Translations under genes and position numbers: made by a program
Origin: Bilabrum cf. latius
Taxonomy: Eukaryota
DNA: 64,000 bases
Reading direction: 5' to 3'
NCBI GenBank assembly: GCA_965178125.1
Contig: OZ237774.1
Span: forward strand, 186,001 to 250,000
Shown here: piece after piece, positions 31,592 through 64,000 of the stretch
Layout: each line of letters starts with the position of its first letter
Numbering within the stretch: position 1 is the stretch's first letter
Notes under the pieces: model-generated
Seen by the model: the letters and a program-made list of their open reading frames with translations, nothing else
The model's database searches: none
Told to the model about the DNA's origin: nothing

Positions 31592-31809
31592 AGTGCTAAT
31601 ATATTCAAAACGATCCGAATGCACTTGAATGCAAGAGTGATTGAACCGTACACTGTATACTGCAAAGTGGAGATCTGGTCGGCCAAAAGTGCAGTCTACT
31701 GTGGCGGAACTTGCCCTTGCTGCAGCAAGTGTTTGCAAACTGCCCACTCCAAGAGCACGCAACAGGCGCATATAAAGTCGCCCAAAGGAGCTCATTTAAG
31801 CTTGTAAGC

Positions 31810-38467: not shown

Positions 38468-38958
38468 TGTTCAGTGTGTATTGTTGCCAGCGACTCGGTG
38501 CCTTCCAGAATGGCACGGCGACAAAACGAGGCGTCTGCTTGCCACGTCGTCGAATTCAAGCAGTCTGCTGTCCCACAGGGCTTAATCTGTGCCTGTGTGA
38601 ATTCACAACTCGACAGACTATCACCAAGTGTACTAATTATATCGTATTCGACCCTCCAGAAAGACTGGTCGGATCGGCAGTCGGTAATAAGTGCCTTGAA
38701 ACGAACAGCTTTGCTTTGGAACAGTGCCCCAGTCGTCACATCTCGGGATCAGCTGGGCCACTCCCAAGAAGATCCGATCCGCTGCAGTCACCCGTTGCGA
38801 TCCCCGCTCCTCCTCCAGTTCACCATCTGAACACTCCTGCTGGCACGTGAAGTCGCACCCACGGCTCTCTGCTGGCATTCCAGTCCCGCTGCCCACCACA
38901 GGCTGCCAACCACCACCACAACACCTGCTATCGGATCCGGATTCCCACTCGTCACTCG

Positions 38959-40628
38959 TCACTCCCGCAGCGGCTTGATCCCCAGCTTGGCCCGCAGTGC
39001 ATTCGCCTCCTCAACCTCGCTGAGTGGCGCGCCTGCTCCGGTCGATGCCTCACCGCTCGTCGCACCGCTCCCTCCCCCCACTGGCAGCTTGATCCCCGGG
39101 ATGGCCAGGGGCGCCTTCTTGCCCTTCTTGTCCTTCTTCTTCTTCTTGCTCTTGTCCTTGCTCTTGTCATGTTTCTTGCTCTTGCCATGCCCACCGCTTG
39201 CCTCCCCCTACCCCCCATGTAGGCCCGCGCCCATGCCCCCGCTAGGTGGTCCCATGGGCGCGCTAGGTGGTCCCATGGGCGCGCTAGGTGGTCCCATGGG
39301 CGCGCTAGGTGGTCCCATGGGCGCGCTAGGTGGTCCCATGGGCGCGCTAGGTGGTCCCATGGGCGCGCTAGATGGTCCCATGGGCGCCCCTCCTTCATCC
39401 GATCCATCCATCGCCGCCTGCCCCGAACCAGAACCACCACTATAACCAAAATCACCACGAGTCCCGCCCTCCACCCGGGCACGCTTGGAGGGCCTATGCA
39501 TGCCGCCCCCCTACGATCCCCCCTTTTCTTCTTCATCTTCACTTCTGAACCTACCCCTCACCTGCCCAGCCTGATGGTCTGCACCTGCACCTGCACCTGC
39601 ACCTGCACCTGCACCTGCACCTGCACCTGCACCTGCACCTGCACCTGCACCTGCACCTGCACCTGCACCTGCACCTGCACCTGCACCTGCACCTGCACCT
39701 GCCCTGCTCCCAGCGCTTCCTGCAGGCGCACCAGGTGCACCCGCGCCATCCATCGGGGCCGGCCCAGGCACAGGCTCACTCGAGGCTGCCCCACCTTTCA
39801 CACTGAACCCACTTGCGGCTCCGGATCCGGACGGCAGCGACGGCGGCACGCGATCGCCGCTAGCACGTGCCCCGTGTCCCTCCCCATCGTCGCCATAGCC
39901 CGAGGATACCGAGGATAACCCGGGCATGGGGGCCTGTCCCCGCGCGATTGCGCTAATCTCATCCCGGGTCACCATGCCCATCCCCACCAGCGGGGACTCG
40001 CGCGGCGCCAGCAGCCGGTTCCGCTCGAGCTGCATCCTGCTTGGTTTCACGGGCAGCGTGATTCCGATGGACTGCTCGTCTCGCAGCAGGCCGTCCACGA
40101 ATTCGTCCACGTGGATGATCTTCCAGCCCCCATCGACGACACGGACGGCCAGCTTTCGCATGTCGAGGAGAAGCGGCTCCAACTGCCTGTGGATGTCGGC
40201 GGGGCGAGCGACAATGCGCCAGTAGATTGCCCCTAGGACTCGCAGGTACTTGAACTCGTCTTGCTTCATGTACTCAATAGCAATGTCGGGCTCTACCGAC
40301 AGCTGCAGCATCTTGAGCAGCAGACATATGAAGTCTGTCGCCACCCGCGCACCTCCGTGCAGTCCTCCAACATGGTCCAGCTTCGTGGCCTCATCCACAA
40401 GGGTTGCAGCTGCGGTTGAAATGATTTAGTTCATATTGTGTGTTCATGGTAGCACATGGAACGGTTGAATCAGGGAAGACAATGAAAGCCAAACTCACCA
40501 TTCAACCCGAAGCAACGTTCCTTCCAGTAGCGGCTTGCATATATTCGATCGCGAGTAATCCTTTCAACAAGCAGCTGCGGGTCGTTACCGTGTACGCTTT
40601 TTGCAAGTACATCAGTGCGATTTGCCAT
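38959..40628 (-). CDS. PRP38: Pre-mRNA splicing factor PRP38A with C-terminal HIND motif
   Basis: MANRTD...HGNDPQLLVERITRDRIYASRYWKERCFGLN; intron 40410-40498 (GT-AG); FICLLLKMLQL, EFKYLRVLGAIYWR, IHVDEFVDGLL. TAG at 39511 and 39208. Ends EVEEANALRAKLGIKPLRE-TGA. Confidence 0.93.
39240..39388 (-). repeat. 21-bp coding tandem repeat (~7 copies, SAPMGPP)
   Basis: Tandem GCGCTAGGTGGTCCCATGGGC units on the + strand. Confidence 0.95.
39579..39702 (-). repeat. (GCAGGT)n microsatellite, ~20 copies, encoding (AG)n in PRP38
   Basis: Perfect CTGCAC repeats on the + strand. Confidence 0.97.
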
Positions 40629-41802: not shown

Positions 41803-41968
41803 GGGTCCCTCGAAGGCTATTCAAGTAAGTGCCGATGATTTCATGTTGTGGATGCTAGCTTTATGGATCTAGCTCTTGTTTGTCACAAGCAGGAGACCAC
41901 CAACCACGCCAACTCGCTGCACACCCTTTCCATTACAAATACTGCCTATTCGCAATTTTCCGATCAAG

Positions 41969-43699
41969 TTAAGTGACCCGCACTCGCACCAGAGGTGTCC
42001 CGCTGTCCCTCCTCCCCACCGCCCTTTTCTCGGCTGCCTGCAGCCACCGCTCCATCGACGGCGTGAAAGGTGACTGCCCAGACCCCGGAACTGGTCGGCC
42101 CCGCGAGCTCCTCGCACTCATCACACCTCTGCGATCACTCGTCACACCGAGCAGGCCACTGGGCGACGTGGGAAGCTCCAGGTCGGTGCACCGGCGGGCC
42201 GCCCCGCCTGCTCTCGCACTCGTCACACCAGATGCAGCCGGCCCGCCGTCCCCGATGCGCAACTGGGGCACAAACGCTGGGGGAGTCCGGCGACGAATCA
42301 GCTCCGAGTCCGCGGTCCCGCGGGCGCCATTCCGAAGCGGACCACCGGTGGCGGCAGCGTGCTGGCCGCGGCCTGGCTAGACCTGCCCCTGCCCCTGCCC
42401 CAGCAGCACAGTGGCGGCGGCTCGTGCTGCCCTCGCCCCGCACTCGTCACAGCCTAGTCGCCTCGGCGCAGGCCGGGTAGGCGTGTGTGGCCCTGATGAG
42501 GCGCTCGCCGCGGAGGTAGCCCTCCCACGGCGAACCTGGTGTGACGAGTGCGATCGCGCGGCAGGCGTGTTGTTGCCGCGCCCCTCCCCCTCCAAGGTGC
42601 CTTGTTGCCCTGACGTTGATGCGGCGCGACTCGGAGTCTATAATGAATGGCTGGCATCCGATCGGCAGCGGTCCCTATCGGAAATGCCGCTGCTGCTACT
42701 GCTGCTGCAGCTTCCAATCGTCCCGCTGGCTGCCCCCACTGGCAGCTATTGCCCTTGCTTCAGGTCACGGCCCACCACCACTTGCTGCGTGTCACCAACA
42801 CGGGGGATACTCCCCGAATGCAATGCCAGAGATAATACCATACTACCCTCGGCATCACCGCCGCCGCTGCCGGCATGGTTGTCGCTGGCTGATTCCGAGC
42901 AGGAATCGCCAGGCGCAGTTGCATCGATATCCTGCTCGCACGAAAGCACCTGCTTCGCGCGATAACGGGCCTACCGTGAGCTTTTCGCTACCTACACGGC
43001 CTCCCATATAATCCAGCCCAATACAAGGATCAGCTAAGCTACCGAAGAGCAGAGTAAAGCTTCGCTTCGCCGCTGCAGCCCGGGCGGATGGTGCCAAGAG
43101 GTGCTCTGCAACTGCTGCACAGCTTCAGCTGCCGCCGTTGACCCGTGCACATGCCTACTTTCCACAGCTAGTATGGCTGATACGGCCTTGCCACGCAAGC
43201 TATGCTTGCTGAGCCCCAGCTCGTGCGAATCGGGGGAAAGCATTCCGTGAGACCACGCAATCACCAATCCTAGCGACATTACAGAGACAGCCGCAGATAC
43301 CAGTGGTCCAAGGGAGCGATATGCTAGCTTCAAGGTTCGTGCACTGCTATTGGAATCGCTATCATCGATTCCTAGCAGCTGTGACCAGGCCGCAACCCAG
43401 CCCGCGCGAAGCGACAGCATCGTGGGCGCCAACCAAATAAACGCCCAAGCAGCGGCGTGTAGCAGCAAAAGTATGCTCAATTTTGATTGCATTGCGTTCC
43501 ACAAAAGCGCTAGGGCTGGAATGTGTCTGCCCTGGTGAGCGATGAACTCGCCGCCCGCATCCATTGGTAGTGCTGAGCAAACGGCACAAACGACGCAGCC
43601 TGCTAGCGATATTGTCACGAGACACGCCTTTGCAGCTATAAATATGCATGTGTTCTGGTTCTAGTCGGGTTGTAGCATTGCTGCACCATCCATTGCCAT
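41969..43699 (-). CDS. Hypothetical membrane protein with disordered C-terminus
   Basis: ORFs 43661.., 43034.., 42746.., 42377.. and 41969.. share a frame, joined by TAG (43661, 43034, 42992, 42971, 42746, 42638, 42377). Hydrophobic helices in the N-terminal half. Terminates at TAA 41969-41971. Start uncertain. Confidence 0.5.
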
Positions 43700-44368
43700 A
43701 TTGATTGTGCTCAAAGGTCCGTTCTTCTTGTCAATGTGTAGTAAATGAATGATGAAGATCATGACGTACAACCGTTGCCTAGATCTAGCGCAACGGAGCA
43801 CGATTTGCGCACCTGGACCGTGGCAGCACACAAGTCGGTCACGTAAAATCACCGGACTATTTTATCCTATGGCCTTAGACGCCCGATGTGCCCCGTCTGC
43901 TGCCTCGTCACGGCCACAAGGCCCTTTGTAACAATGGTGGGTGGCCTGCGTCGGGGGCGGGCGCAGGTGCCGTCGAACCCACCGCTGCCTTCAATGGCCG
44001 GGCCATGCGAGTCGCGGACACGGGGCACGCTGACTTGTAGAAGCCCAGGGGTTCAGGCTACTTGTGGGGGAGAGTGTGGGTGTGAATACGAGTAGCCCCA
44101 GTCGATAGAGTGCCAGAGGCGGGGGACAGGGGCGAGGTGGTGCGGATGGGGATGGGTGGCAGGGCGCTGTACACGATGTAGGATGGTTCTACTGGATGTG
44201 GACTGCTTGCAGCTTGTACAGCACCCATTCAAGCTGTGTGCCGCAGTGTAGATCCAATGGATGTAGCTACTAGCTACGCTTGGGTTCGAAATACGGTGCT
44301 ATTTGATAGAAATCTGAAATAATGTGCAAGAGCCAATGCATGTGGCACAGCACTCTCAATCCGTCACC

Positions 44369-47300
44369 ATGGCATCTGCCATCGACCGTGACTTGATGTT
44401 GCACAGCTTGACTGTGCGTGATCCGGGCGCAATCACAGATTGCGCCTACGGGTCGTTCACAAGTCCCGGTAGGAACGAGTTCGCCACGCTTCGAGGCGGC
44501 ACGGTGCTTGAGATTTCCAGGTCTGATGCATTGAACCGGCTAGTATCCGTTTGTAAAGTGCAGTTGTTTGCTCTAGGTAGGTGTATTCGGCCAGCACGCC
44601 TCATTGGGACAAAGCAGGACTACGTCGTCCTCACCAGTGATAGCGGTAGGCTCACAGTGTTCGGTTGGGACGCCAAACGGGCCACTATGCAGCAGGTGAG
44701 ATACTAAACCATGCAATTCATCGGTCCGATCAGCTGGGATAGTGATGCCTGCCGCACATATCACCAAGTGCGGCCTCCCAACCTCGACCGACCCCATGCA
44801 CTTGCTGCGGCCAGCACACACGTCGTCCCCCGCCCGCGAATCACCATCGCTTACTGTCCGCAGGTGCATTGCGAGCCCATGGGCCACAGCGGAGCAGGCC
44901 GTCTCACCCCCGGGCAGTACCTGGCCGTGGACCCACTGGGGCGAGCGCTGATGGCGGCGGCGGTGGAGGCCCGGCGGCTGGTCTTCGTGCTGGGCAGGGA
45001 CTCGTCCGTGGTGGGCGCCGGGGGAGGGTCCGCTGACGGTCCGGGGACCGACAGATCGGAGGAGGCCGCCCGCAGGCAGGACCGTTCCATGGGTGGATCG
45101 CTCACCATCAGCAGCCCGGTGGATGCGCACACCCCCGGTGTGATCACACTGGCGCTGCAGGCCCTGGACACTGGGCACGACAATCCCGCGTTCGTGGCGT
45201 TGGAATTGGAATACGACGACGAAGCAATGGAGGACGAGGACGATGATGACGAGGACGAGGATGGGGAGGGTGATGGTGATGCTGCTGCAAAGCGCATGCC
45301 CGCGGGGATCCAGCACCCAACCGCGTCTGCGGTTGCAACCGGCACGGGGGCCAGGGTACCCCCGGGGGCAGGAGCGGGCACGGGGGGGCAGCCCGTCCCC
45401 CTCCCACCCCCGGGCCCCGCCAGGGAACAACGGGAATCGGACGACAGTGCCGCCGAGCAGGCAAGGCCATGGCGCACGCCGGCCGAGGCACAGGCCAGGG
45501 CGGAAGAGTGCGCGGCGCCGGGAGATGTTCCGCCGCCGCCCCCTCGCGGCCGGCGCAAGGTGGTGTCTGTGTACGAGCTGGACCTGGGGATCAACTCGGT
45601 GAGGAGGCGCTGGAGGGGGCCTGCACCGGCGGGGGCCAGCTCCCTGCTGCCAGTGCCGGCGGGGCGGGGCGGCCCGGGGGGCTGGCTGGTGCTGGGCGAG
45701 GACCTGCTGATGTACCAGAGCGAGAACTCGGAGCCCATTGCCGTGCGCGTGCCTCGCCGGCACGACACGCCCGACGACCGCAGAGTGCTGGCCGTGTCTG
45801 GCGCCACCTTTCAGCGCAAGAGCGTGATGTTTAGCCTGGTGCAGACGGAGCAGGGGGACCTGTTCCGTGTCTTGCTGCACCCCAGGGAACAACCGATGGC
45901 GGGCGAGGGAGGCCTGCAGGGGGGCAAGTGGGCGGGCGGGCCAGGCGCGGTGCAGGTGCGCTACCTGGACACTGTTCCCCCGGTGTGCGCCCCCCTGCAG
46001 ATCACGAGGGCCGCCCAGCTGTTCGCCCCCTGCGAGGGGCAGGACGCGATGCTGTTCCGGTTTACCAACCTGGGTGACCCCAAGGAGGGGGACGGGTGGG
46101 AGGTGGTGGAGGCGGTGGGGAAGCCCGCAGACCTTGGGGACGATGAGGGGGAGGGGGGGCACGATGGGGAGGACGAGGATCAGGAGGAGGCGCTGGTGTT
46201 TGAGCCCAGGGCCCTGCGGAACCTCGAGCTGGTGGACGAGTCGCATTGCGCGGCGCCCTGCACCGACATGGTGGTGGGTGACGTGGCCGCCGCCGGTGAC
46301 CCAGGGAACAGCCTCAGCGGGGGCCTGCACCAGCTGTACGCGCTCTGTGGGAGAGGAGCAGGCGGCTCCTTGCGGGTGTGGAGGCATGGCGTAGAGGCCT
46401 CGGGCGCGGGGGAGCTGGCGCTGCCGGGTGTGCCCGACCGGGTGTTCGCGCTGGGGTCAGGGGCGGGAAGCGGCGAGACTGTGGCTGAGGCGGCGGCTGC
46501 GGCTGCTGCGGCGGGGGAAGAGGACGAGGGGGGCGCGGCTCAAGGGGCGGGGAGTAGCGTGCGGTTTGACCGACACATCCTGGTCTCGTTCCCCAACGCC
46601 ACCCTGGCCCTGCGCGTGAGCGGCGGCTCGGAGGATGGTGGCCAGGAGGGGGCGGACGGTGAGGCATCAGCTCCGATCGACGAAGACCGTACGACTCCGT
46701 TCTTCCGCGGTGGTCCCACCCTCGCTGCGTGCGTGCTGGAGGACGCCAGAGCGGCTGCGGGGGGGGCGAGGTACTCCGTGGTGCAGGTGCACCCTGGGGG
46801 CGTGCGGGTGCTGCAGACCGGCGGGGGTGGCAATGGGGCGAGCAAGGGCGGCGTGGACGGTGGCCAAACCGGCGGACCTCCGTCGGATGCAGACGTGAAC
46901 GAGTGGGCACCCAAGTCGGGCACGCACATCTCACGCGCGGCCTGCAATGGGAGGCAGGTGCTTGTGCTGCTGGGTGACCTGACCCTCCAGTACTTTGAAG
47001 CAGACCCCGTCACGGGCGAGCTGAGGGACCTCCTGTCGCAGCAGGCCCCCGCTGCGCGGGCCGATGGGGCGGGGTCGGGCGTGCCGTCGGACGCTGTGAC
47101 GGCGCTGGCGCTGGCGCCCGTGCGGCGGGGGCGGCTGCGGGCCTCCTTCGCCGCGATCGGGGACGCTGCTGGCGCCGTGCGGCTGATCAGCCTCGCCCCC
47201 GGGGAGGGCTGCTTGCAGCAGGTTGCAACCGCTGTGCTCAGGGCCCCCGCAGTGTCCCTGGCATTCCAGGAGCTGTCCCCCACTGTGGGGCAGGCGGCGG

Positions 47301-50080
47301 AGGCGGCGGCCGCTGCGGAAGAAGCGGAGATGCGGGCCGGGGGTGATGTGGCGGCGGCGGAGGCAGCCGAGGTGCTGCGGGCGGGTCAGCTGCAGCTGCT
47401 TGCGGGCCAGGCGGACGGGAGTGTGACGAGCATGAGGGTGGACGACGGGGCCGCTGGGGCGCTGGGCGGGGCGGGCGTGTCCATCGGCGGTGTGGCGGTG
47501 GCGGCCAGCGGGTCTCTAAGGGACGCGACGACTCATTTCGTGGGGGCTGGGGGCGTGCAGGTGGAGCCGGTGCGGCTGCCTGACGACGCAGCCGAGAGGA
47601 TCGGATCATCGGGGGAGGGCGTTGGGGCGGCCATGGCGAGGGCCCGGGCGGGGGAGGGGGTCCCCTCTGTGCTCGCCCTAAGCTCAAGGGCCAGCGTGTG
47701 CGCCGCTGCGCAGGGGCCTGGGGCCGTGCAGCCCCTGGCTCTGGCCGGCAGGATCGACGCGGCGTGCTCCTTCCACTGGGAGCAGTGCCCGCACGGGATC
47801 GCGGCGGTGAGCGGGAGCACGCTGCGGATCCTGAGGGCGCCCGCGGCCAGGGGGTCGGCGTGGACGAAGCGAACGTTCCCTCTGAGGTACACCCCCAGGA
47901 AGGCGTGCCCCGTGCCGGGTACGCCCCTCCTAGCCGTAGTGCAGGCGGATGCCCACTGCTACTGCGCGGCAGATCGGGCTGAGCTGGCACAGGCGCTGGT
48001 GCAGGCGCAGGCAGACGAGGACGAGGACGAAGAGGAGGAGGATTAGTAGGATGGAAAGGAAGCGAAGGAGGGTGGTGGCGCGGCTGCCTCTGTGTGTGCC
48101 GAGGAACAAGCCGTGGCGGGGGCTCGTCGCGCTGCCATGCAGGCTGAGGCAGCGGAAGCGGGGGAGGAGGATGAGGCGGATGATGGAGGCAAGGTGGGCC
48201 CAGCCGATGGGGCGCTTGTGCGACTGGCCGCGGGGGAGGGGGAGAAATTCGTGCCCCTGGCAGCAGGTGTGACGAGTGCTCGGTACCCCGGCCACCCCAG
48301 CCACGTGGAGGGCATGCGCGAGATGGGGGCGGACCCCGGTCTGGAGGGTGTGTGCCTCAGGCGGGTGGGGTATCCCTTGCCCCCTGGGGAGGGGCCTTGG
48401 GCCTCGTGCGTGTCGCTGTTTGACGCGTCGGGGAGGGGTCTGCAGCCAGTGAAGGGTGGATCGAAGGGGGGCGGAGGCTAGGTCAAGGAAGGGGGAGACG
48501 AGGAAGAGGAAGAGGAAGACGAGGAGGGGCAGCTGGGGGAGCCCGATGGCAGCCTGCTGGGATCGGCGGAAATGCCCGAGGGAGTGGCGGCATTGAGCGT
48601 GGCCGCAGTGCGATTCGACGAGGGTTTGGCCACCTCTGGGATCAGGAGCGCGAGGGGAAGGGCAGGCAGCAGCAGCAGCCCTTGGTACGTGGCTGTGGGG
48701 TGCGTGCGCGGCCTGAGGTACCATCCCACGCGACTCAGGGGGGCGTGCATCCGGACCTACAGGGTGGTTCCAGGGAACAAGGAGGGGGAAGAGGACGGTG
48801 GCCAATCAGGGGGTGGTCAAAGCGGGTGGGCGGGATGCCGGCTGGTGTTTGTGCACGAGACGCAGGTCCCCGGCCCGCCTTTGGCCATGCGTTCCTTCCA
48901 GGGCCGGCTCCTGGTGGGTGTCGGGCGAGGCCTGCTCATGTTTGGGATGGGGCAGAGGCGGTTGCTGCGGAAGGCCGGATTCGAGGGGCTGCCCACCAGG
49001 GCGGCGTGCATCGAGATCATGCCCAGGAGAATTGACTCGGCCGCTGCTGCGCTGGGCGGGATGGCAGGAGGAGGCCCAGCTCCTGGTTCGTCTTCTTCTT
49101 CGTCTTCTTCGGCGTCTTCCGGTGCTGGTGCCTCGGGGGGGCAGGAAGAAGCGGCGGCGGGGGAACAGGCGGACCCGAGCTAGGGCCAGGTGTCTCTGTC
49201 GGCCATGCTGTCTGCCGCGGCGGTGCGGTCGGGCACTACGCATGGCAGAGACGGTGCCGCTGGCCAGAGGAAGAAGAGCCTGGCTCTCGCAGCTCTGGCC
49301 GCCCTGGTCAAGCCCAGCGTGCCCACCCACCTGGAGGATCCCTTGGAGCACGACTCGCTCGTGCAGTCGGAACGAATAGCCGTGGGGGACGGGCAGGAAG
49401 GCGTCGTTGTTCTCCGGTGGAGGCGCGCGAGCCAGAGCTTCGGGGTGCTGGGCGAGGACACGATCCCAAGGCACTGCACCTGCCTGTGCCCTCTGGACTA
49501 CCACACGGTGGCGGTGGGGGACAAGTTCGGGAACGTGGCTGTAGTGCGACTGCCGGAGGACGCTTCGGGGGAGGGCGAGATGGGAGTGAGCGCGGCGGAC
49601 GGGGTGCGGGCGCTGTGGGAAGGGGGCGCCAGTGGGGGCAGGATGAAGGCGCCCGGGCTGGAGCAGGTGTGCCACACGCACCTGGGGTCCGCCGTGACGG
49701 CGCTGCGGCCGGCGCGCATGCCCGGGGGCGGCGAGGTGGTGCTGGCATCGACGGTGACCGGCGGGCTGATGGCCCTGCAGCCGCTGCAGACGAGGCGAGA
49801 CATCGCGTTCGCCACGACGCTAGAAAGGTTCCTTCGGGCTCAGCGGGTGCCCGCGCTGAGCCCGGTGGGGCGGAGGCACGTCGCCTTCAGGGGAGCGTAC
49901 GTGCCGGTGCAGCGAGTGGTGGACGGAGACTACATGGAGCAGGTACTGGAGCTGCCGGCGGGGGCGAGGACAGCGCTCGCGGATGACATGGGAGACGTGG
50001 CGGGTGCGGCAGGTGCGACGGGGCGGCGGGTCGCGATGGAGAGGAAGGTCAGGAAGTTGCGCGCCCAGGTTGGGGTATGA
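44369..50080 (+). CDS. SF3B3: Splicing factor 3B subunit 3 (Rse1/SAP130), ~1850 aa with low-complexity insertions
   Basis: DYVVLTSDSGRL; intron 44696-44863; PGQYLAVDPLGRA; YELDLGIN; LVQTEQGDLF; QLYALCGRG; FPLRYTPRK; FQGRLLVGVG; LDYHTVAVGDKFGNV; GRRHVAFRGAYVPVQRVVDGD. TAG at 48044, 48047, 48479 and 49181. Ends TGA. Confidence 0.95.
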
Positions 50081-50459
50081 CCTGGTGCTGTGGTCGGGCC
50101 CGTTCAATGCATCAAACTGCTTCAGGCTGGCAGGTTGCAACATTAGACTGTGAGTTTGTTGAAGGCCAGGCTTGAAGTGAGCGTGGCAAAAAGGTTCATC
50201 TAGGCCAAAATGTGAGATCCAATGTTGTCCTCGTGAACGAAGCAGTCCCACAATTGGTTTGCCTTCTAACTTAAAGTTCCATCTGGGAACCTCGGCTAGC
50301 GGTATCGACTGATCGTCTTGGAATGGCTAATCCCGGATTGAGTAGCCGCGTGTTGTTGTCAAGATCTTCATGTAAACTAGCCGGTTCTTCATCCACAAGA
50401 TCTGTTCAATTCCACTCAAGTCACGGTGGCCCGACTGTTCATCAAACATGATTCATGAT

Positions 50460-52727
<2,268 letters not shown>

Positions 52728-53697
52728 ACTCAACTCAACATGTACCCCATTCCGGGCGTCCTACGGGGCACACACCCGAACCGAGGCTCGAACACAGCCT
52801 CGTTTGCCCCGCGAGCAGCTGCGGCACACATCTTCATCTTTCACGTTGTGTACCGGTTGCAACCAAAACCTCCTCCAGCCAACGAATCGCACGCTATCCT
52901 GCAGAAGCAGATCCAGGGCCTTTTCCTTCGCGTGTGAGACTCCTTAGGCGGTTGTGTGGTTAGTATTTGTTATAAAAGTGCTGTTTATGCCGCCTCACCG
53001 CCGGATGTTGCTACTTTGGTTGAGGTAGGGTTCTCCTAGGCCCGTGACAAGCAAGCCAAAGTTATTCAACTCTTAAATGATAGTGTAACGTTTCCATTGG
53101 ATCGCCCCTCCAAGGAGGAACTTTAGAATCTTTGCAAGTTAATTGATTTCCTTGATTGTGAAGCTTGGTTGGCTCTGAGGGACGCCGGGGAACGATTTGG
53201 CAGGGCAGCCGTTTAGCCTCGAACTCCGGCTTCGGGCACCTGCTCGGGCCCGCAAGAACAGTCCTGCCGGCCGAAGGCCGATCTTTCTCAGAGCATCCAC
53301 GTTATGAACCTTTTGTGGAGGTTGGTGGCACGGCGGGGGCACATTTCGTGGCGGAAAGGCCTGCCGAGCATCTCGTGGGTGCCGCGGCCGTTTATCGCGT
53401 GCGACCGCCGAGCGTCGACTCGGGGTGCTGCCCGGCCCATCAGGCCCTCTGCGCAGCGATGTACGGCGGATTTCGTGTCACCGTATACATTTGTATCACA
53501 TCTGTCTCGGTTTGGTTGCTAAGATCTTGTATGTTGTTCGATAGTGTGTATTTGGTCCCTCTGTTGCATCTTTCCCCGCCATGGCCCACTCGTTTCGAAG
53601 CCCCTCTCGCTTTTTCTTTATCGCAGTTTCTTCCGAGGAAACCGATCGAGACTGTGTACTTGAGAAAGACATTTTGAGCGAGCGGACGCAACTTATC

Positions 53698-56600
53698 ATG
53701 AGTGACGCCACATCTTCCTCGTCGTCGGCCACCGCGGCGGCCACGGCTCCCGCAGACGCGGCCACTTCCACATCCAGTGCCATGCACCACGCCCCCGCTG
53801 GCGTGGATGGCGGGGCCGCCCCGCAGCCGCCCATGTCGCAGGCGCAGTCGGCGCACGAACAGCAACAGCAAAACTCCGCGGCGGCCGCCGCTGCCGCCGC
53901 TGCCGCCGCCGTCGCCGCCGCTGCAGCCTCGGGCCAGCAGGGGGGGGGGCAGGCCCAGGGGGGCGAGACTCAGGTGCCTGTCCCCACCTCGGGGGGCCTC
54001 CCCTCCCTGGGGATGGGCCAGCTGGCACACCACCACCACCACGCGGCCGCCTCCATGGCCATGGATGCGGTGCGCGCCTCGTCTTCCTCCCAGGCGCCGG
54101 GGGTGCCGGCCGCTTCGGGCGCGGGGGTGCAGGTGTCCATGCCCACGGAGGAACACGCTGTGACTGCCGCGCTTGAGTCTGCAGCGGCTGCGCACCACCA
54201 CCACCACCAGCAGCAGCAGCAGCAGCACCACCAGCACCTTGCGGCAGCCCAGCACACCGCCGGGATGGTGGACGCGTCCCACCTGGCCCACGCGCAGATG
54301 CAGCAGCACATGGCAGCCCAGATCGCCCAGCAGCAGATGGCAGCCCAGCATGCTATGGCCCAGCACTCGCACGCTCATGCCATGGCACAGGCAGCGGCGG
54401 CAGCACACCAGCAGCAGCAGCAGGCGGCGCATCAGCACGCGGCCGCTGCCGCCGCCCACCAGGCCCACCTCGCCCAGCAGCAGCAGCAACAGCAGCAGCA
54501 ACAGCAGCACGCCCTCAGCCAGCACCAGCACGCCGCCCTGAGCGCGACCATGAACACGCCCACGGCCATGGCCGGCAAAGCCGCGAGGGATTTCCTGGTG
54601 CACCTCAAGTCCGAGCTGGGGGTGCGACAGAAGGTCATTGCCCAGGCTCTGGGCGTGGGGCCGGGCATGGTGAGCGCCTTCATCACTGGACGGCTGGGCG
54701 GGGGCAGCGCCATCGTGCCGGCTGTGCAGGCACTTCAGAACGACCAGGTGAGGCTCGCGGCACTGCGCCAGGGGAACCCCATCGAGCCCATTCAGAAGAT
54801 CAACACGCGGAGGGGGAGACCGCAGGGGGGAGGGTCGGCGCCTCCCGACCCGCGGCCGCCCCGCCGCAAGCTCATGACCAAGAAGATGCAGCAGCACCAT
54901 CACCAACAGCAGCAGCACCAGCAGCAGCAGGCAGCCGCGGCGGCTGCCGCGGCACACGGCCAGATGGGCATGGGTGCAGTGCACGGCGATGCAGCCGCGA
55001 GCGCGGCGGAACATGCCGCCGCCGCCACGCTGGCCGAGACCCTTGCCAGCAACTAGAGCACCGGGCAGCAGAGGCAGCAGGCGCAGCAGGCGCACGAGGC
55101 GGCCGCTGCGGCGGCACAGGCGGCAGCGGCACACACCCAGTCGCACTCGCAGCAGCAGGTGGCTGCCTCGGGGCAGGCGGCTGCTGACGCGGCGGCCGCG
55201 GCGGCAGCCGCCGCCGCCCGTCAGACGGGCGGCGTGCAGGGCGGCAAGGCCCCGTCTTCCTCTTCCTCCTCCTCCTCCTCGTCCTCTGCGTCATCGGGGG
55301 GGGTGCGCGGGGGCACGTCACCCGCTCGTCGGGCTGGGCCCCGCCCCCGGCAGGCAAAGCCCCCTAAGCTTGATGACAGAGTCGCGGTGCGGCGGGCGGC
55401 GCTGCAGCTGCGGCAGCAGATGAGGCAGCTGGGATTGGACATCGGTCCATTGCTACCCGTGGAGGCGGCTCTGAACGAGGACGGGCAGGGGGGCGCGCAG
55501 GCACAGGCCATTGAGGTCGCGCGACTGGCGGCGCAGGGCAGCGGATAGGCGGGGGCCGGGGCGGGGAACAGCGCGGCAGCAGCCTCGACGGCGGCCGCCG
55601 CCGCCGCCGCTGCCGCCGCCGTTGCCTCCGGAGCGCAGGCGCAGCAGCACGGGGGGAGTTCTGGCTCCGGATCCGGTCAGGGAGGCGCGGCGTCGGCCTC
55701 GCAGCAGCATCAGGCGGGCGATTCAGACGACCTGGTGCGGCGGCTGGAGCTGCCCCCAGAGCCGCCGGCGGAGGACCCTCAGGTGCTGCGCGACTGGGCG
55801 AGGGCGTGGGCGGATCAGAAGGGCATCCTCCAGTGGGAGCTGGCGAGGGGGGCGGCGGTGAGCCGGCCGCTGATCGCAGTGTTCGTGGCCGGTCGGCTGG
55901 GGGCGGGCTCGGTGGCGCATCGCCGAGTGGCTGCACTCAAGGCGGACCCTCTGGCCATCGCGACCACCGAGCTGGTGGCCGCTGCCAGGAGGGAGTACGC
56001 AAGCAACCGGGCGGGGAGGCGTGACTCGCTGCAGCGCAGGAAGAAGAACAGCCCGTCCGTGGGACCAGCGGGGAGCCTGGGGGGCGTGGACCTGTCGCAG
56101 GCGGCGGCGGGGGTCGGGGGAGTGCCGGGCGCACCCCCGAGGGTGGGGGGCCCGGTGCTGCCGCCCAACGCATCCCCCGCCTCGGCGCAGGGACTGCTGG
56201 CGCTCTTCAAGCCGCTGGCGCCAAGCGCGGCCGCGGCGGCCGCCCGGCGAGGGAACAGCGTCGCACGGCAGTTCGTCTCGAAGCGCAGCAACCTCGGCGA
56301 CGTGGTTGTGCCGGAAGCGAGCGAAGCACACATCAAGGCGGAGCAGGCGAGGACCTTCGCCCTGTCCGTGCTGGGGCAGGACTACAGCCGGAACGGAGGC
56401 AAGACGCAGAGGGGGGCGCACGACGGGCTGCCCGGAGGTGCGCCGGCGCTGCAGGGCGGAGGCAAGATGAGGCCCAGGCTCAAGGACTTGGCCAACGCGG
56501 CGCAGGTGCTGCCCGCCTCGCTGAGCGCCTTCCTGGCTGGCAGCATCGGGGTCAAGAGCAAGTGCGTGGGGCAGCTGCTGCAGCTGCAGAACGAGGTGCA

Positions 56601-56979
56601 GCAGCTGGGCGGCGACTCTCAGGAGGTGGTGCGCAGGCTGAGCGAGCAGCGGGGGGAGCAGCGGAGGGGGGGGCCTCCGGGGCCCAAGCGCGCCCAGCAC
56701 TGGAACACGCCCGCGTCGGCTGGGCAAGCACAGCAGAGCGCGCAGGGCGCGGCCGCCGCTGCCACGGCGGCTGCCATGCACATGGCGGCCGAGCAGCGGC
56801 AGCAACAGCAACAGCATATGCTTGGCCAGAAGCGTGGGCGCGCGGATGGTGAGTCGGACGCCTCCAAGCGAGCGAGGACGGACGGCGACATGGCCTCGTC
56901 GTCTTCCGCGGCGGTTGCCGCCGCGGCCGCGGCCGCCGCAGCCGCGGCCGCTGTGACGGCAAGCAACGCCGGTCGGTGA
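53698..56979 (+). CDS. Ala/Gln/His-rich putative transcription regulator with three HTH-like repeats and an AT-hook
   Basis: Same-frame ORFs joined by TAG 55054 and 55546. PolyQ/H/A tracts; three related segments QKVIAQALGVGPGMVSAFITG, QWELARGAAVSRPLIAVFVAG and LKDLANAAQVLPASLSAFLAG; RRGRP. Ends TGA. Confidence 0.72.
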
Positions 56980-57299
56980 CTCGTTCTCCCTGTGCTCTAT
57001 CTATCTGTTTGTCTGTTTGAAAGCTGCGATCTATTTTCTATTTCACATGAGTATTTCGTAACCATTTCGCGAAAGCTAAGCTGAGGATGGGTCACTTGCT
57101 TGTTTTCAAAACACAAACTCAAGGATCCTCGCCTGTTTGGCCTTCGCTGCAGCCCTCCTCGATCCCTTCGAGACAAAGTCGAGGATCCTTGAGTGGTCCT
57201 GAATGACCCGTGAGCGCATAGACTAGTGTGGTACACAAACCGCGTTGCCCGCGCACGTGCTGGTGCTGGGCGGTGACCGAGAGGCGAGCCTTAGGTACA

Positions 57300-58146
57300 G
57301 AAGACCACGAAAAGCGCGCATTGGCCGGACGAGTCGAAACCTACCGCCCCTTGTCTTCCTACCTCTTCTTCCCCTGCTTGTCGAGCACAGGAACTCAACA
57401 GACTTCTCCCCGATCCCCCCCAATACGTCCACCACAAAGGGTACGACCCGCACGCCACTGCGCACCGCCCCTTTCTATGTCCTCACAGTCCCTGGACACT
57501 ACTTGTCTTCTCCTCCCATCCGGACGTCGAGTACTCCGATGTCGACGGGTCTACCGTGGTTGACCAGCTTCGTGGCATGCGCGGTCCGCAAAGCAGACGC
57601 CTCCTGCTAGTCGCTGCCAATCCTCCACGACGAGCGGTCCCACCGGTACGTTGCCTAAGTAGAATCAATAACCGTGACATCGATGAGATACGCCGTCCCC
57701 TCGTGGTGAAAGAGCAAGTCGCCTCGAGGCACGAACGGGCCGCGCTGACCCGGTCAGCCGGGCCACTTGGGCCTCTGGCTCCCGGATTGGGTGTCTTCTG
57801 CCCGCGGCCTCGTGGACCGGACCACCCGCTCGAGAACGTTGAGCACACGGAAGTGCCTGCAGCCTGGAAGACTTCCGCAGACACGCTTGTCCTTGTCCTT
57901 GCACGTGGCACCGTGGCGAACTGACTAGGTCAACTCGACTACCTTGCCCTGCTTCCGGCACCCCGGGCAGATCCCCACATGCACCGTGCGTTGCCCCACG
58001 AGGTTGTGGGGGAAAGCTGTACGGCTGTTGGATGGCGAGACGCCGGCAGAACATGCCCCAGACATCTTCATGCTGGACTCAATCCGAACGAAAGGATTGG
58101 GTTCAAAGTCTCCGAATCGGCGACTCAGATCCGAGTCGTGAGGCAT
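57300..58146 (-). mobile_element. Degenerate 3' fragment of an RLE-type non-LTR retrotransposon (CRE/R2-superfamily-like)
   Basis: CPGC..H..C zinc knuckle followed by an RH motif, PRGDL....AYLIDVTV and VPFVVDVLGGIG...EFL, typical of the restriction-like endonuclease C-terminus. Contains an in-frame TGA (57754) and a frameshift. Boundaries approximate. Confidence 0.65.
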
Positions 58147-58860
58147 TTATAAGGTGAAAATCGCGAATGACATTCTAGAGTAGTCTAGTAAGCACCAGCG
58201 TACTTGGTACCTCATACCTCGAATTTCGCACTGCATCCCTTTTAGCAAAGTCGCTTTGGTCGGGCTGTGGGTTTGCCTGATTCAGGGTTTGTTCGTTCTG
58301 TTCCGAGAGGCTATCGTTCGCTCAGAAAGGCGCTGCATCCAGCCAGGCGTAGGCATCAGCTTGTGTGAGTTATCTTGCATTCAATAGGCGAGAGAAACAC
58401 CCTTTAGTTGCCCTAGATGCCTGTCGTGACTGAGTAAGTAATTGTCGCATGAGCGCATGGGACCTGTGCCTCGGGTACCACCTGGCACAGGCTCAGTGTA
58501 GCTGCTGTGCGCTTGGTCTGTATTGAAGCTGCCGTGTATTTCTTGTAGTTGCTTCTGACTTGTAGCTGGTTGTGCAAACTTCTTCGCTCGGCCTCGCAGC
58601 TCGATCTCATGCGGGCAGTTAGACGCTTGCAAGGAGCAGCCACAAGGCCGGGAGCGCGGATGGTCCATGATTTTCGCTGCTCCCCTCGTTTGCAGTATGT
58701 CATGTCATGCGGCACGATGTCGTACGGAAGCTGGGTTCGCCCTTCAGCGGGCGTGCGCTTTATGGCAGGCGACCGAGCACTGCACTCATGCATAATTGCA
58801 AGGGAAGAAGGGCTCGCTGGCGATCAGCAGGTCATATTGAGTGAGCAAGCACTTCCGAAG

Positions 58861-61659
58861 ATGGAAGATGTCCTGAGTAAGGCCAGCACTGCCCTGAATG
58901 ATGCCATGATTTCTATGAATGAGGCCAGGAGTGCTGTGGATAGGGCCGACTAGGTCGTGTATGCTGCTGCCGAGGACATTCGCAACGCCAAGACGGACGA
59001 TGAGCGCGCCGAGGCCAGACAACGCGAGCTCAACGCCATGTAGCAGCGAGACAATGACGAGTAGCGGTATGAAGAGGCCAAGCAACAGCAAGACAAGGCC
59101 AAGCAGCGGTATGAAGAGGCCAAGCAGCGGTATGAAGAGGCCAATAAGGACGCCCAAAACATGTTCGCCAAGCAGCGAGAGCAAGCCATCGCGCTCCGGG
59201 ACTGCATCCCGTCCGAGCGAACATCGCAGCACGCCCGAGCACTGGCCTCCATGATCAAGAAGGGCGAGGAGGACCTCCAGAGCCTCGAGTACCAGCGAAG
59301 GGCTCTGCAGCTGCCGGGGCTTGAGACGCCGCTGCCGTACGTCTGCACCACAGATATGAAGATGGCAGCTGGAATGCTGTTCGTGCAGCGAGTCGGCCCA
59401 AGCATCGACCGCTTCAAGGACGCCGTGAATTATGTGTCGCGGGCTGATAGTCCTCAGGAGCGCCGCGTGCTTGTGGTTGCCCAGGCCTCAGGCTCGGGAA
59501 AGACCAAGCTCGCATACGATGTGTCCGTAGATTCGAGCATCATGTCGGTCGTAGCCACTGCCGCCAAGCCCAAAGCTACAGGATTATCCCATCCTTTCGC
59601 TTGGCTAGCACGAGCCGAGCCTGAGCTTCGCGAAGCCGAGGTCCCGCATGGGGTCAAGAACGAGACTGAGCTCCTCAAGGTATTTCGCGGTTACCTGTTC
59701 GTGGTGGTGCTCGCCGCTCACATAGAGTGGGCGGCCCACGTTGCAGAAGCCCTGCATGCGCTTGAGCCACGGCAGCGGAGCCAGGACGATGTCAACCGAG
59801 CCATCCTGAGGGCAACAGCCAATGGCATCGGTCAGCCCGGCATCGCGTAGGTCGTCAAGGAACGCCTTGCCGGTATCCCGCACATACACAAGGTCGAGAA
59901 CTTGGCGCTACTGGGTATCTGGGCAGAGCAGTACGTGCAGACGGCAAAGAAGAAGCTTCAGGGCGCGCATGGGGCTCTGCTTGGGGATGCAGCCGGGGCC
60001 AACCCTCCGTCCATATTGGTGACTATTGACGAGGCCCCAAATCTCATGCAGCAGCACTTCAACACCGGTGAAGAATCAAGCACGAACTGGCTGCGTGGTG
60101 CAGCTTAGGCGCTGGCTGTTATGACGGAATAGAACGTTGCGAGCTGCGTGACAGGCACCTTCTTCGAAGTGTCAAAGTTGCTGGACGACTCGTTGTCGCC
60201 CCTACGGGGCCGCACCGAAAGGTTCAACCAGGTCGTGAATATAACGTCGGCTGACCTGTGGCACGATCTGCTGCGCCGCCATGTGCCGTCACTGCCAGAA
60301 GCAATCCCAGCCAGTCTCGAGGCGGGTCTGGAGCGGCTGGAGGGGCGGCCGATCTTCTTATTCGACCGGCTTCTCTTGACAGCGTTGGATGACCTGGTCA
60401 TGTCTAAGCCCCACACGAGCGAGTCCGAATGGCCGTCTGACATTCAGGCTATCAAGGACCCTTCGGCGCGCCGCTTGGCGGGATTCCTGTACTCACGCCT
60501 CGACTCTGCCTGGGAATCCTCGGTGGCCACCATGGTGGAGCGGATCGAGAAGTTTGTCGCGCCCACCTAGGACACCGGCAAAGACGATAGCTACCTTCTG
60601 CAGCAGCTGCTGCAAGGCGTGTTCTTCAAGGGCGGTCAGCTCCCTGTGCTGACGGCGGACTACGGCAACCGCAAACACGATAAAGACAACAAGGCCATGG
60701 AAGATGCCGTCAGGCATGGCGTGCTCGTCTACGACCCGACTGGAGAAGGGAGTGTGCTGCAGGAGCCCGTGACAGTGGAAGCTGTGCACCGGGTGGTCCG
60801 AAAGCGCTCGCTAAGGAGGGATGTATATGAGGACGAGTGGCTAGAAACCACAAGACGCGTGGTGGCTAACTGGGAGTAGGCGAAAGGGGATGTGTTCGAG
60901 CAAGCCTTTGTGTGGATGCTACTCCGCGCATGCAATGCCCATGATGACGATATGGAGCTGCAGGATGCTTTGGCTGGTGTGGTGCCAAATGGATTCGTTT
61001 TCCCGAAGAGTGTGAGGGGTAAGATCGTGAAGATCACGGGAGCTAGTCCTGTCCCGGAGGTCGGCGATGGCAGCAAGATGGACGACTGGCGTGCAATGTC
61101 CAGCATGAGCACAATCTGGTATGGCTTCCACCAAAACGCTGGAATGGACCTAATGGTGCGCACCACGGACGGCACAGTGATCGGCGTGCAGGCCAAGTCG
61201 GGCAAAGTTGACCTGGCAGACGCGGTGGCCAGCTGCAGCCTTGGTTGGCAGTACTTCTCTAGGAAGCCAATCGCGAGCAAATCGAACACGTTTTTACGGA
61301 AGCCTGGTGACTTGCGGCGATGGTTTCTTGATCATGCTCCTATCGCGGCGGGCGGGGAGCATCTGCGGCTGGTGTTCTCCGTGAAGGGCTTCAGCCCAAG
61401 CGCCGTGGATGCCGCGAATGCCTACAATGAGCTGTACCCTCAGTCTGCCATTCTGCTGTGCCAGTCGTCGGACGCGGTGCTCGGACCTTTGCATGGGGCT
61501 CTGGCAGGTCTTACCGACGTCACGACGGTTGACTTTGACCCTAGCAGTGCCGCAGCGGCGCTGATGGTACACCAGGACGTCGGTGGGAAGAACGGGCTTC
61601 AAGGCGCGGGGCAGTCTTTCAGCGAGTGGCTGGCGGAGGAGAAGAAGGGGCGAAGGTGA
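58861..61659 (+). CDS. Crinkler/RHS-effector-like protein: coiled coil, P-loop NTPase, PD-(D/E)xK-like nuclease
   Basis: Single frame with 8 TAG (58951, 59041, 59062, 59848, 60106, 60130, 60568, 60877). Walker A ASGSGKT; Walker B ILVTIDEA; KGDVFE; GMDL...IGVQAK. Ends TGA. The start could lie further upstream. Confidence 0.7.
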
Positions 61660-61959
61660 GGCGGAGTGTAGGCACGATCTAGATCTGGAATCCAGATTGA
61701 GTCATCCCTCTAGGTCTTCATCCGTTCATGTGTTGCCATGGTAGAGTCTAGACCTGTCAGGATTCTGTAAGTCTATGGCATACTATTGGCATTTGTCCAA
61801 GTTGCTCTTTGCGCACCCGTGCCCCTGTTAGCACTATTGGACTCCCCTGGATGGCTTCAAATTCAGCTCCCGCCGTGTATCGTGCCTATGAGATAGGAAT
61901 CCATGTGATCCACCTTGGGTCAGTCGCCTTCCTGGACCTGCCCAAGGAGAGTATGCAGG

Positions 61960-62215
61960 TGCGGATGAGGCGGGGGTGACTGCGGGGGAGCCAAGTTGCC
62001 GTGATGAACGCGCTGCGCACGCTCGTGCCCGACGATCGGTTCCAGGTGCAGGGCACCGCCAACCTGCTCGAGTCCACGGAGCTGGCAGCCGAGGGCATGC
62101 TGGTGTTCTTCAACGCGAAGGCCGTGATCTCGATCGCGCTGTGCTTCTTCGCTGCGTGGCTGATTTTCTCTGCGACTATCCGTGAGAACTCGAGGGAGCT
62201 GGGGGTGCAATGTAA
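61960..62215 (+). pseudogene. Fragment resembling an FtsX-like permease domain
   Basis: FFN..AVISIALCFFAAWLIFSATIRENSRELGV resembles the FtsX 'xRExxxExGvlr' motif. Truncated on both sides. Confidence 0.4.
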
Positions 62216-62267
62216 ATCCCGTCTTTCTCTTGCACAGTGCGCATCCGTCTAGATTTAGAATTCTACT

Positions 62268-62316
62268 TTGCCTAAGTAGGCCGTAACATCGATGAGATAC
62301 GCCATCCCCTAGGGTG
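62268..62316 (-). mobile_element. Short second remnant of the same RLE retroelement
   Basis: TTGCCTAAGTAG..CCGTAACATCGATGAGATACGCCATCCCCT matches 57651-57707 and encodes AYLIDVT on the minus strand. Confidence 0.6.
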
Positions 62317-63245
62317 CTCGACATGACAACCCCGTGTTTCTAAATTGCATCGAGAGTGTCACATAAACAGAATACAAAATTGTGAGGTTGAGGTAATGAA
62401 TACATGAATTGATTCGGCTCTTTCCTTTTATTTATTCCGTTGGTAACACTAGTAACAATCTAAAGATCATGTTGTATTGTCTTCGTAGTTCTTAAACAAG
62501 CAGATAAATCAAACAAAATTTCAAATTCCTTTGTTTATCTGCGTTGGTAATTACATAGCAAACGACAAATTATATTATACAGAAAAGGCAGATATTTAGG
62601 CGTTTACTTCAAAATGAAAGGAGGAATAGGCGAGACTGTAAGGGGAACAATAGACTTGAGGGTCCAGTTTATTGATGATAATTAATTGAAAGATGTATTC
62701 TGACATGGTAGCGAATAGGTAGAGGCTCGCAAATTCAAAGTCAAAGTCGGCCACAACCAATGCAGGCCAACAAATCCAATCTATTTGATGAATTTATCGC
62801 TTTGATATATTTTATCGTCATCAAACTTTTACCTTCTGCTAGCCTTCTTGCAATACTAGTTCTCTTTGGCAATAATCGAGCTTCCCATGTCATCCAAGCT
62901 GTTACTGTGCACCGCCTTGGTTTGGCTGTGGTACCACTGGGGCTCTTGGAGTCTGCAGCTCGATATTCTCTCGCGCACATTCCTTTGCTCCTACCTAAAG
63001 ATTAATTCCGACCGCTTCATGTTCTATGCCTGTAATGGGCAAATCGGCATTCGCCACCGCCCCTACATCTGCATCCACTGCTTGTTGCCAACATTTTTGA
63101 AGCGAGTTCCCATTTCAGATAGTCAAGTGTGTATTTAGATTTTGTAGATGCTATTCGGTAGTTTTCGGAATGAAAACGATTTGAATCACATTTTGGTCGC
63201 CTTGAACCAGACACAAGCATAATTGATTCAAAACATCTTAAGAAT

Positions 63246-64000
63246 TCAATTTTCACTACCTTCACGTCGTTTTTTGGCCTAACCGCCACCCTAAGGCAAA
63301 TCAGCTTCTTCACGCGATCGTTTCTTGCTTTCTGCAGACTCTGCGCTGTCCTTTAGCTGAGTTTTCACCTCGCCACGTTCTACTGCAGTAACACCATCGA
63401 ACCATTGATGATCAAGACAATCCTGAGCTGATATTCTTTTGGAAGCATCGGGACAAAGAAGTTGCCTAACAAGATCTTTAGCGTCGAGAGACACTGATGA
63501 CCAGTATTTCGAAGGGAAACTCCACTTGACACCCGATCCCAGCTTGTTGAGTGCCTCGTCGCTGAATGGAGGTCTACCTGACAATACAATGTACATGATG
63601 ACTCCAACTGACCACATATCTGCAGACAAGCCATACCTCCCGGCACCAAAGTGAGTGTCTTTACGTTCCAATACTTCTGGAGCAAAATACTGCGAAAAAA
63701 AGAAAAATTTATGAAATTTATTAACAGTTTATATACAAGAGGAAACATGAATTACGTAGAGAGGGCCTTTGTGCTCGCTCACCTGTGGAGATCCAACATA
63801 AGTTTTGAGCCCTTCGAACCCCAAGGTTCTTGCTACACCAAAGTCTGCAAGAACCGGCACCGTATCACAAGCTGGGTCTTCACTAGCAAGCAAAATGTTC
63901 TCAGGTTTCAAGTCCCTATGCATGATCTCCCGGTCGTGAAGATATTTGACAGCATCCAGAATTCCTTTCATGAGAACTTTTGCTCTGCTTTCCGGGTATG
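63246..64000 (-). CDS. Ser/Thr protein kinase, CAMK group (CHK2-like), C-terminal part
   Basis: HRDLKPENILL; ADFG; GSPQ|YFAPE across GT-AG intron 63690-63782; DMWSVGV; RISA. TAG at 63291 and 63279, then AKKRREGSEN-TGA at 63246. Confidence 0.9.

Follow-up and report, generated by a model that had tools for sequence, protein, structure and literature searches.

UAG as a probable glutamine codon in a GC-rich, probably stramenopile-related nuclear genome

We analysed a 64,000-nucleotide stretch of genomic DNA assigned to Bilabrum cf. latius (contig OZ237774.1 of assembly GCA_965178125.1, positions 186,001 to 250,000 of the forward strand; hereafter the window, in whose own numbering all positions are given). 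The window is eukaryotic nuclear DNA with a G+C content of 64%, and our results make it very probable that it belongs to a GC-rich nuclear genome, probably related to the stramenopiles, in which UAG is translated as glutamine and in which UGA, as the main stop codon, and UAA still terminate. The analysis centres on a short tandem repeat at 59041-59148, inside an open reading frame (ORF) of 1050 codons, where TAG and CAG occupy the same position of the repeated unit. An earlier note, made from the letters alone, had taken this exchange for a synonymous change and had proposed that UAG means Gln. In the reading that we favour, the TAG and CAG of the repeat are indeed synonymous.

Results

TAG is used as a sense codon, TAA and TGA as stops

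In the 14 ORFs considered (17,249 codons), TAG occurs 63 times in frame and neither TAA nor TGA occurs even once, and these same ORFs end on TGA in 12 cases and on TAA in two. It is this distribution that designates TAG as a sense codon and TAA and TGA as the stops, the evidence for UAA consisting of these two terminating TAAs, one in an FG-GAP repeat gene and the other in an ORF of doubtful status. The effect on the frames is large. With the standard stops, the longest stop-to-stop frames of the window measure 1802, 1113 and 848 codons, and they reach 3148, 2687, 2104, 1924 and 1791 codons when TAG is no longer counted as a stop; taking TAA instead of TAG out of the stop set leaves the frame lengths nearly unchanged.

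The genes on which the argument mainly relies are the following.

58507 to 61659, plus strand: ORF of 1050 codons with nine in-frame TAGs, ending on TGA, which carries the repeat; its product is predicted to comprise a coiled-coil hairpin, a P-loop STAND-like NTPase and an alpha/beta C-terminal domain
32699 to 38467, minus strand: ABCC/MRP-type ABC transporter with six in-frame TAGs, ending on TGA (E = 1e-297 to MRP1)
22352 to 31795, minus strand: DEAH-box helicase (DHX29/36/57-like) with 12 in-frame TAGs, two of them (codons 2149 and 2317) within the conserved core, ending on TGA
44711 to 50080, plus strand: SF3B3/RSE1 with four in-frame TAGs, all upstream of the C-terminal CPSF_A domain, ending on TGA

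Several of these TAGs are embedded in gap-free conserved blocks, namely codon 785 of the ABCC gene (LTAxKAFVSLSLFNILRFPL) and codons 2149 and 2317 of the helicase. These three columns, together with five positions in the family of the repeat-bearing protein, pair one-to-one with residues of the homologs, and the alignments show no surplus length there that splicing could remove.

Public protein sets carry the trace of the same codons. Metagenome proteins called with the standard code, and 98-100% identical to the repeat-bearing protein, end directly before its TAGs 149, 448, 534 and 791. Diverged paralogs also stop at its TAG sites, at 448 (P0125, 90.5% identity), at 688 (P0210, 91%) and at 542 (P0132 and P0194, 73-74%). 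TAG is thus kept across paralogs that are otherwise in frame, and is therefore a sense codon rather than a sign of decay.

Could the standard code nevertheless apply, the TAGs being nonsense mutations of pseudogenes, sequencing errors, or codons spliced or edited out of the mRNA? Decayed copies are often found in families that, like that of the repeat-bearing gene, are multi-copy and evolve fast; moreover, canonical GT-AG introns do occur in this genome. Against this, the 63 TAGs are found without any TAA, TGA or frameshift across the 17,249 codons, essential genes among them, and the one-to-one columns of the ABCC transporter, the helicase and the repeat-bearing family leave nothing extra to splice out. 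Furthermore, the same sequence is present in contigs of other studies. In particular, one of these contigs (record 22 of run X6) spans 58962-61899 and differs from the window by not a single letter, so the TAGs of this region are not assembly errors. The standard-code explanation is already contradicted by these data and we give it next to no credit. That TAG is a sense codon here is close to certain.

UAG alone is reassigned

In the 14 ORFs, CAA and CAG stand in a ratio of 107:617. If TAA and TAG followed the same ratio, about 11 in-frame TAAs would be expected (simple arithmetic from the counts), and none was seen. Because of this deficit, and because TAA ends two ORFs, we assign the code to the UAG-only type of NCBI translation table 15 and not to the type in which both UAA and UAG mean Gln (UAR=Gln, table 6). 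Indeed, UAA used as a sense codon, which distinguishes table 6, is not found, and four attributes of table 15 are present: UAG stands in frame within conserved genes, the columns that it occupies are statistically those of Gln (see below), and UAA and UGA are kept as stops. TAG remains a minor codon, with a share of 8% among the Gln codons of the window ORFs.

Alternatively, UAG could have two meanings, specifying Gln inside genes but terminating some of them, in the way that certain ciliates read codons according to context. The protein kinase gene at the end of the window carries TAGs 15 and 11 codons ahead of its TGA, and these two could be either sense codons or true stops; in addition, some TAGs of PRP38 and of the helicase lie in C-terminal tails that are not conserved, where termination would escape notice. 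However, each ORF examined continues to a TGA or a TAA, no gene of the window needs a TAG stop, and the TAGs located upstream of conserved domains are read through (in ABCC, in the helicase core, in SF3B3 and at codons 149-791 of the repeat-bearing gene). We consider a dual meaning very unlikely, and retain UAG as a plain sense codon.

The heptad repeat and its two TAG codons

The repeat is made of 21-base units that encode heptads, and its elements are as follows.

59041 to 59148, plus strand: heptad array of five 21-base units, recognised in the sequence, by a repeat finder, in the structure model and in paralogs
59041 to 59043, plus strand: in-frame TAG, codon 179, matching CAA 59083 in the 42-base register
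59062 to 59064, plus strand: in-frame TAG, codon 186, matching the CAG of units 4 and 5
59104 to 59127, plus strand: unit 4 and the first codon of unit 5, in which CAG 59104 and CAG 59125 are the counterparts of TAG 59062

The unit xAG CGG TAT GAA GAG GCC AA is present three times exactly as the earlier note had described it, with TAG at 59062-59064 and CAG at 59104-59106 and 59125-59127. The string CGGTATGAAGAGGCCAA follows this TAG and both CAGs alike, and the 19-mer AGCGGTATGAAGAGGCCAA has three exact copies in the window (starting at 59063, 59105 and 59126) and none in 100 shuffles. Over 59044-59144, Tandem Repeats Finder reports a period of 21 (3.5 copies, 84% matches) and a period of 42 (2.0 copies, 85-87% matches). 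In frame, the five units read xQRDNDE, xRYEEAK, QQQDKAK, QRYEEAK and QRYEEAN, and the x that opens the first of them is a second TAG, at 59041, of which the earlier note made no use. Both TAGs share the frame of the ORF at 58507-61659, which stays open over its whole length when TAG is read through.

Two paralogs preserve the region without TAG. P0212 has QQRDKAE QRYEEAK opposite the xQRDNDE xRYEEAK of the gene in the window, and P0124 has QQRDKAE RRYEKAE. In the heptad-consistent alignment, TAG 59062 thus faces Q in P0212 and R in P0124, and at TAG 59041 a Q begins the matching heptad in both. The number of 42-base units differs among copies: P0124 and P0212 are 14 residues shorter, and contigs of runs X5 and X9 contain one additional 42-base unit (joint 59136 to 59095).

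The amino acid specified by UAG

The identity of the amino acid was addressed with a Codetta-like column test, in which TAG was masked as X, so that the alignment is neutral to the residue, and in which position-based sequence weights were applied. All ten alignable TAG columns were used (2149, 2317 and 2806 of the helicase; 785 and 1242 of ABCC; 448, 534, 542, 688 and 791 of the repeat-bearing protein). Gln obtained the highest summed log-odds, at +7.2 nats, before Thr (+2.25), Ser (+0.19), Ala (-0.4), Lys (-2.1), Leu (-4.1), Glu (-5.4) and Tyr (-10.8), and the scores of C, M, F, I, W and Y lie between -6.8 and -10.8. The lead of Gln over the runner-up, Thr, is about 5 nats, and its first rank survives the omission of any single column. 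Dominance of the TAG columns by Leu, Glu or Tyr, which the earlier note had singled out as the result that would speak against Gln, was looked for and is not seen, all three scores being clearly negative.

The test was calibrated on sets of ten equally variable columns of known residue drawn from the same alignments, with 2000 draws for each of 14 residues, and it recovered the right residue in 84-100% of the draws. A Gln call at least equal to the observed one, in score and in margin, was obtained in 55% of the draws when the true residue was Gln and in 0.1% when it was Glu; with K, S, T, R, A, D, H, N, L, G, P or V as the true residue, it never arose in 2000 draws each.

The ends of the paralog fragments provide a second line of evidence. 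Of 17 such ends, four coincide with the TAGs of the repeat-bearing gene itself and 13 lie elsewhere. Three of these 13 fall directly before CAG codons of that gene (Q108, Q443 and Q915); as about 5% of the codons of the gene specify Gln, such a coincidence has, by our own arithmetic, a chance of about 0.02. The remaining ten, some of which are probably contig ends, are at R, F, T, W, R, A, E, E, I and E.

Several observations weigh against Gln. No single mutation of TAG is commoner than the one to CAG, so that some pairing of the two codons is expected whatever TAG means. For this reason, and because unit 3 of the repeat has itself undergone a non-synonymous change (AAG to AAT), the repeat alone is weak evidence for Gln; the synonymy of TAG and CAG asserted in the earlier note is upheld instead by the column test, the in-frame counts, the paralog breaks and P0212. 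Gln dominates none of the TAG columns: its weighted frequency is 7-29% where it figures among the top seven residues, and it is lower at column 791 of the repeat-bearing protein. At ABCC 785, all eight closest relatives (52.7-57.1% identity, Cafeteria roenbergensis included) have Ala, and the Gln found in 27 of 119 sequences is in every case in a sequence more distant than those eight. The paralogs that read through the TAGs of the repeat-bearing gene carry S at 149, H at 534, K at 542 and E at 688, that is, Gln at none of the four sites, but this set is biased, as paralogs in which TAG is kept are interrupted at these sites and so drop out of the count. Lastly, no tRNA gene lies within the 64-kb window.

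Part of this would fit a sense codon for a polar residue other than Gln (Thr, Ser, Lys or Glu), in which case TAG and CAG would mark an amino-acid replacement within the repeat. Such an explanation could accommodate both the S, H, K and E of the close paralogs and the Ala of the closest ABCC relatives, as well as the small positive scores of Thr and Ser and the frequent location of TAG within acidic segments of low complexity (EEEDxxDGKE and EEEExDG, for example). There is also precedent, since lineages with UAG=Ser, UAG=Glu and UAG=Leu exist (PMC11687900). On the other side stand the lead of Gln and the fact that none of the 13 control residues reproduces the Gln call in more than 0.1% of 2000 draws, to which are added the three paralog breaks at CAG codons and the Q of P0212 at both TAGs of the repeat. 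We regard another residue as unlikely, and the assignment of UAG to Gln as highly probable on the strength of these comparisons of sequences.

Two other approaches were abandoned. ABCC 785 had been considered a decisive Gln site, MRP1 having Gln there; given the Ala of the closest relatives, it is counted as one variable column. A classifier based on the composition of the neighbouring residues was discarded, as it was right for only 4 of 24 control codons; its output for TAG was an Asp/Glu-like context, with Gln in seventh place.

The repeat-bearing gene

The gene likely starts at ATG 58660, codon 52 of the ORF, and the fragment P0215 begins at this M52. A representative library contains 71 relatives of the protein. 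An alignment of 37 rows gave a confident AlphaFold model (predicted local distance difference test, pLDDT, 80.9; predicted TM-score, pTM, 0.76), which places the heptads at the turn of a helical hairpin (helices 115-179 and 185-229), N-terminal to the P-loop domain, whose signature AQASGSGKT (Walker A GSGKT) is found in the translation. The top Foldseek matches of this model are STAND/AAA+ NTPases, namely the archaeal 2qen, CED-4, RdrA and plant NLRs, with probabilities of 0.97-1.00. As in these proteins (2qen, CED-4/Apaf-1, plant NLRs, RdrA of RADAR), a P-loop core appears to be combined with helical domains, and the coiled-coil N-terminus of the model recalls that of the CC-NLRs. Unlike known STAND NTPases, however, the protein has no family in a Pfam scan of the 1050-codon ORF and nothing below E = 0.5 in a family-profile search of PDB sequences, and the TM-scores are low (0.13-0.21 query-normalised among the STAND matches, at most 0.54 to the target).

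In run X5 the depth over this gene is 73-283, against 16-40 in adjacent single-copy bins. Taking the model and the copies together, we read the gene as a fast-evolving, multi-copy member of a coiled-coil STAND-like NTPase family. A PHROGs search returned nothing, nor did scans with P0001 of IMG/VR or, with this sequence alone, of the JGI metagenomes, and a search for shorter fragments returned 12 proteins; with the four-row alignment A2, the JGI scan gave one distant locus (L001, 23% identity), which was not used further. None of the variants listed, 40 out of 520, falls at a TAG codon.

Affiliation of the organism

Two genes, compared at the sequence level, point to a relative of the stramenopiles. 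The closest named relative of the ABCC transporter is that of Cafeteria roenbergensis, with 57% identity over the first membrane domain. For the helicase core, a tree joins the window to a EukProt protein (Shimodaira-Hasegawa-like approximate likelihood ratio test, SH-aLRT, 92), and the pair lies inside a nine-row group with diatoms and Tribonema (support 95); this is a quick single-gene tree, of which the careful search is unfinished.

Contigs with zero differences over kilobases (41900-61899) are present in runs of four studies carrying four different organism labels. The organism may commonly accompany, or contaminate, other cultures or samples.

Other features of the window

Further ORFs with TAG codons, or with an intron, are listed here; the window also contains PRP38, an IPT/TIG repeat protein and a NUDIX protein.

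50460 to 52892, minus strand: class II lysyl-tRNA synthetase with three in-frame TAGs, ending on TGA
14214 to 22229, plus strand: low-complexity ORF of 2671 codons with six in-frame TAGs, ending on TGA
10236 to 12008, plus strand: FG-GAP repeat gene with one in-frame TAG, one of the two ORFs ending on TAA
63246 to 63998, minus strand: protein kinase gene interrupted by a canonical GT-AG intron at about 63691-63781

The tail of the FG-GAP protein (11560-12008, plus strand) consists of a long, near-perfect tandem repeat rich in Ser, Thr and Pro, PSTTSTSTASPT and similar, resembling a mucin-type stalk. In the region 44318-44860 (plus strand), the SF3B3 ORF begins to align with human SF3B3 only from about human residue 101 onward, and roughly 100 N-terminal residues are probably encoded by an upstream exon in another frame. 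Over 60001-64000, a stretch that includes the kinase gene, the G+C content is much lower (51%) than elsewhere in the window.

A 13-base motif, GGTGTGACGAGTG, recurs at 31 sites of the window with at most one mismatch, against 0.14 expected.

Example sites of GGTGTGACGAGTG: 18342 to 18354 (plus strand), 30283 to 30295 (minus), 35557 to 35569 (minus) and 48266 to 48278 (plus)

Its flanks are not conserved. Within ORFs it lies mostly in the sense orientation (24 sense and 7 antisense among looser matches) and in a nearly constant frame, GGT GTG ACG AGT, that is Gly-Val-Thr-Ser, with few exceptions. In ABCC and SF3B3, where homologs could be aligned, the copies are in unconserved insert regions, and other copies coincide with or closely follow a stop codon, that of PRP38 (38953-38965) and that of the 2671-codon ORF (22242). 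The palindrome GTGACGTCAC, considered as the DNA behind the Gly-Val-Thr-Ser peptide, proved wrong, with one match, and a literature search with the 12-mer of the motif returned primer lists only and no match.

Finally, the segment 56574-57907 is a high-copy repeat, with a contig depth of 400-1000 against about 7-40 in the adjacent unique sequence in all four runs, and with many variant letters. It overlaps a 208-codon ORF (57106-57732, minus strand) that contains five in-frame TAGs and for which no Pfam or PHROG family was found. This repeat may be a mobile element.

Discussion

The first position of the heptad would be occupied in the repeat by two synonymous codons, TAG and CAG, that are one transition apart. 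By analogy with what has been described elsewhere (PMC5304391), UAG would be decoded by a tRNA-Gln with the anticodon CUA, derived from tRNA-Gln(CUG) through one anticodon change, and an eRF1 with poor recognition of UAG would accompany it. A CUA anticodon does not read UAA, and this would account for UAA having remained a stop. No eRF1 gene was found among the window ORFs scanned against Pfam.

Nuclear code variants are rare, and each independent origin puts ideas on stop-codon capture to the test. The present case combines a UAG-only reassignment to Gln with a 64% G+C genome and with UGA as the main stop and, if true, it would broaden the range of conditions known to permit the capture of UAG. 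There is also a practical consequence: as long as table 15 is not applied, genes of this organism will be annotated wrongly and their number underestimated, because gene callers that use the standard code cut them, as the public fragments of the repeat-bearing protein illustrate.

Our full-text literature search found no report of a nuclear UAG reassignment in a stramenopile or bicosoecid, and the only stramenopile item that it returned was a reference to the mitochondrial codes of Labyrinthulea. Likewise, the excerpts of PMC11687900 and PMC5304391 name no stramenopile among the lineages with variant codes. The code itself is of a known kind; its presence in this lineage appears to be new. We tentatively raise the possibility, which we hold as a serious one without leaning on it, that this is the first nuclear stop-codon reassignment in a stramenopile-related lineage, and hence an independent origin of the UAG-only reassignment to Gln in a GC-rich, intron-poor genome whose working stop is UGA.

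The nearest known counterparts are the lineages in which UAG alone has passed to Gln and UAA has been kept as a stop, namely Iotanema spirale, Protocruzia tuzeti, Hartmannula sinica and Trochilia petrani (PMC11687900, PMC5304391). As in these table 15 lineages, UAG is here a widely used sense codon, best read as Gln, and UAA is unused in frame. They differ from the present case in their affiliation, being a fornicate and ciliates rather than relatives of the stramenopiles, and in the setting of the code, since the genome studied here has 64% G+C and UGA as its dominant stop (12 of 14 ORFs), whereas UAA is the preferred stop in the ciliates that read UAG alone as Gln (PMC11687900, PMC5304391). 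In both settings TAG is a minority Gln codon, with a share of 8% here against 18.5% and 31.8% in two ciliates (PMC11687900).

The UAR=Gln code of table 6 is known from many ciliates, ulvophycean green algae, Hexamita, Streblomastix and Amoeboaphelidium protococcarum (PMC11687900). There too Gln captures a stop codon, and the presumed mechanism, a mutation of the tRNA-Gln anticodon together with an altered eRF1, would be alike; however, TAA is not a sense codon in the window, where it is absent in frame against the 11 or so occurrences expected and ends two ORFs. A shift in the meaning of UAG with UAA holding another one is likewise common to the window and to the lineages where UAG means Leu (the uncultured rhizarian exLh and TARA phyllopharyngean metagenome-assembled genomes), Ser (Scotinosphaera) or Glu (an oligohymenophorean with UAA=Lys) (PMC11687900), but the column scores separate them, with Leu at -4.1, Ser at +0.19 and Glu at -5.4 against +7.2 for Gln. 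The same codon and the same amino acid are involved in the TAG=Gln recoding of crAss-like and other gut phages (PMC9523058). Those, however, are phage genomes that recode against the code of their host, whereas the DNA described here is that of a cellular nuclear genome, with spliceosome and aminoacyl-tRNA synthetase genes of its own.

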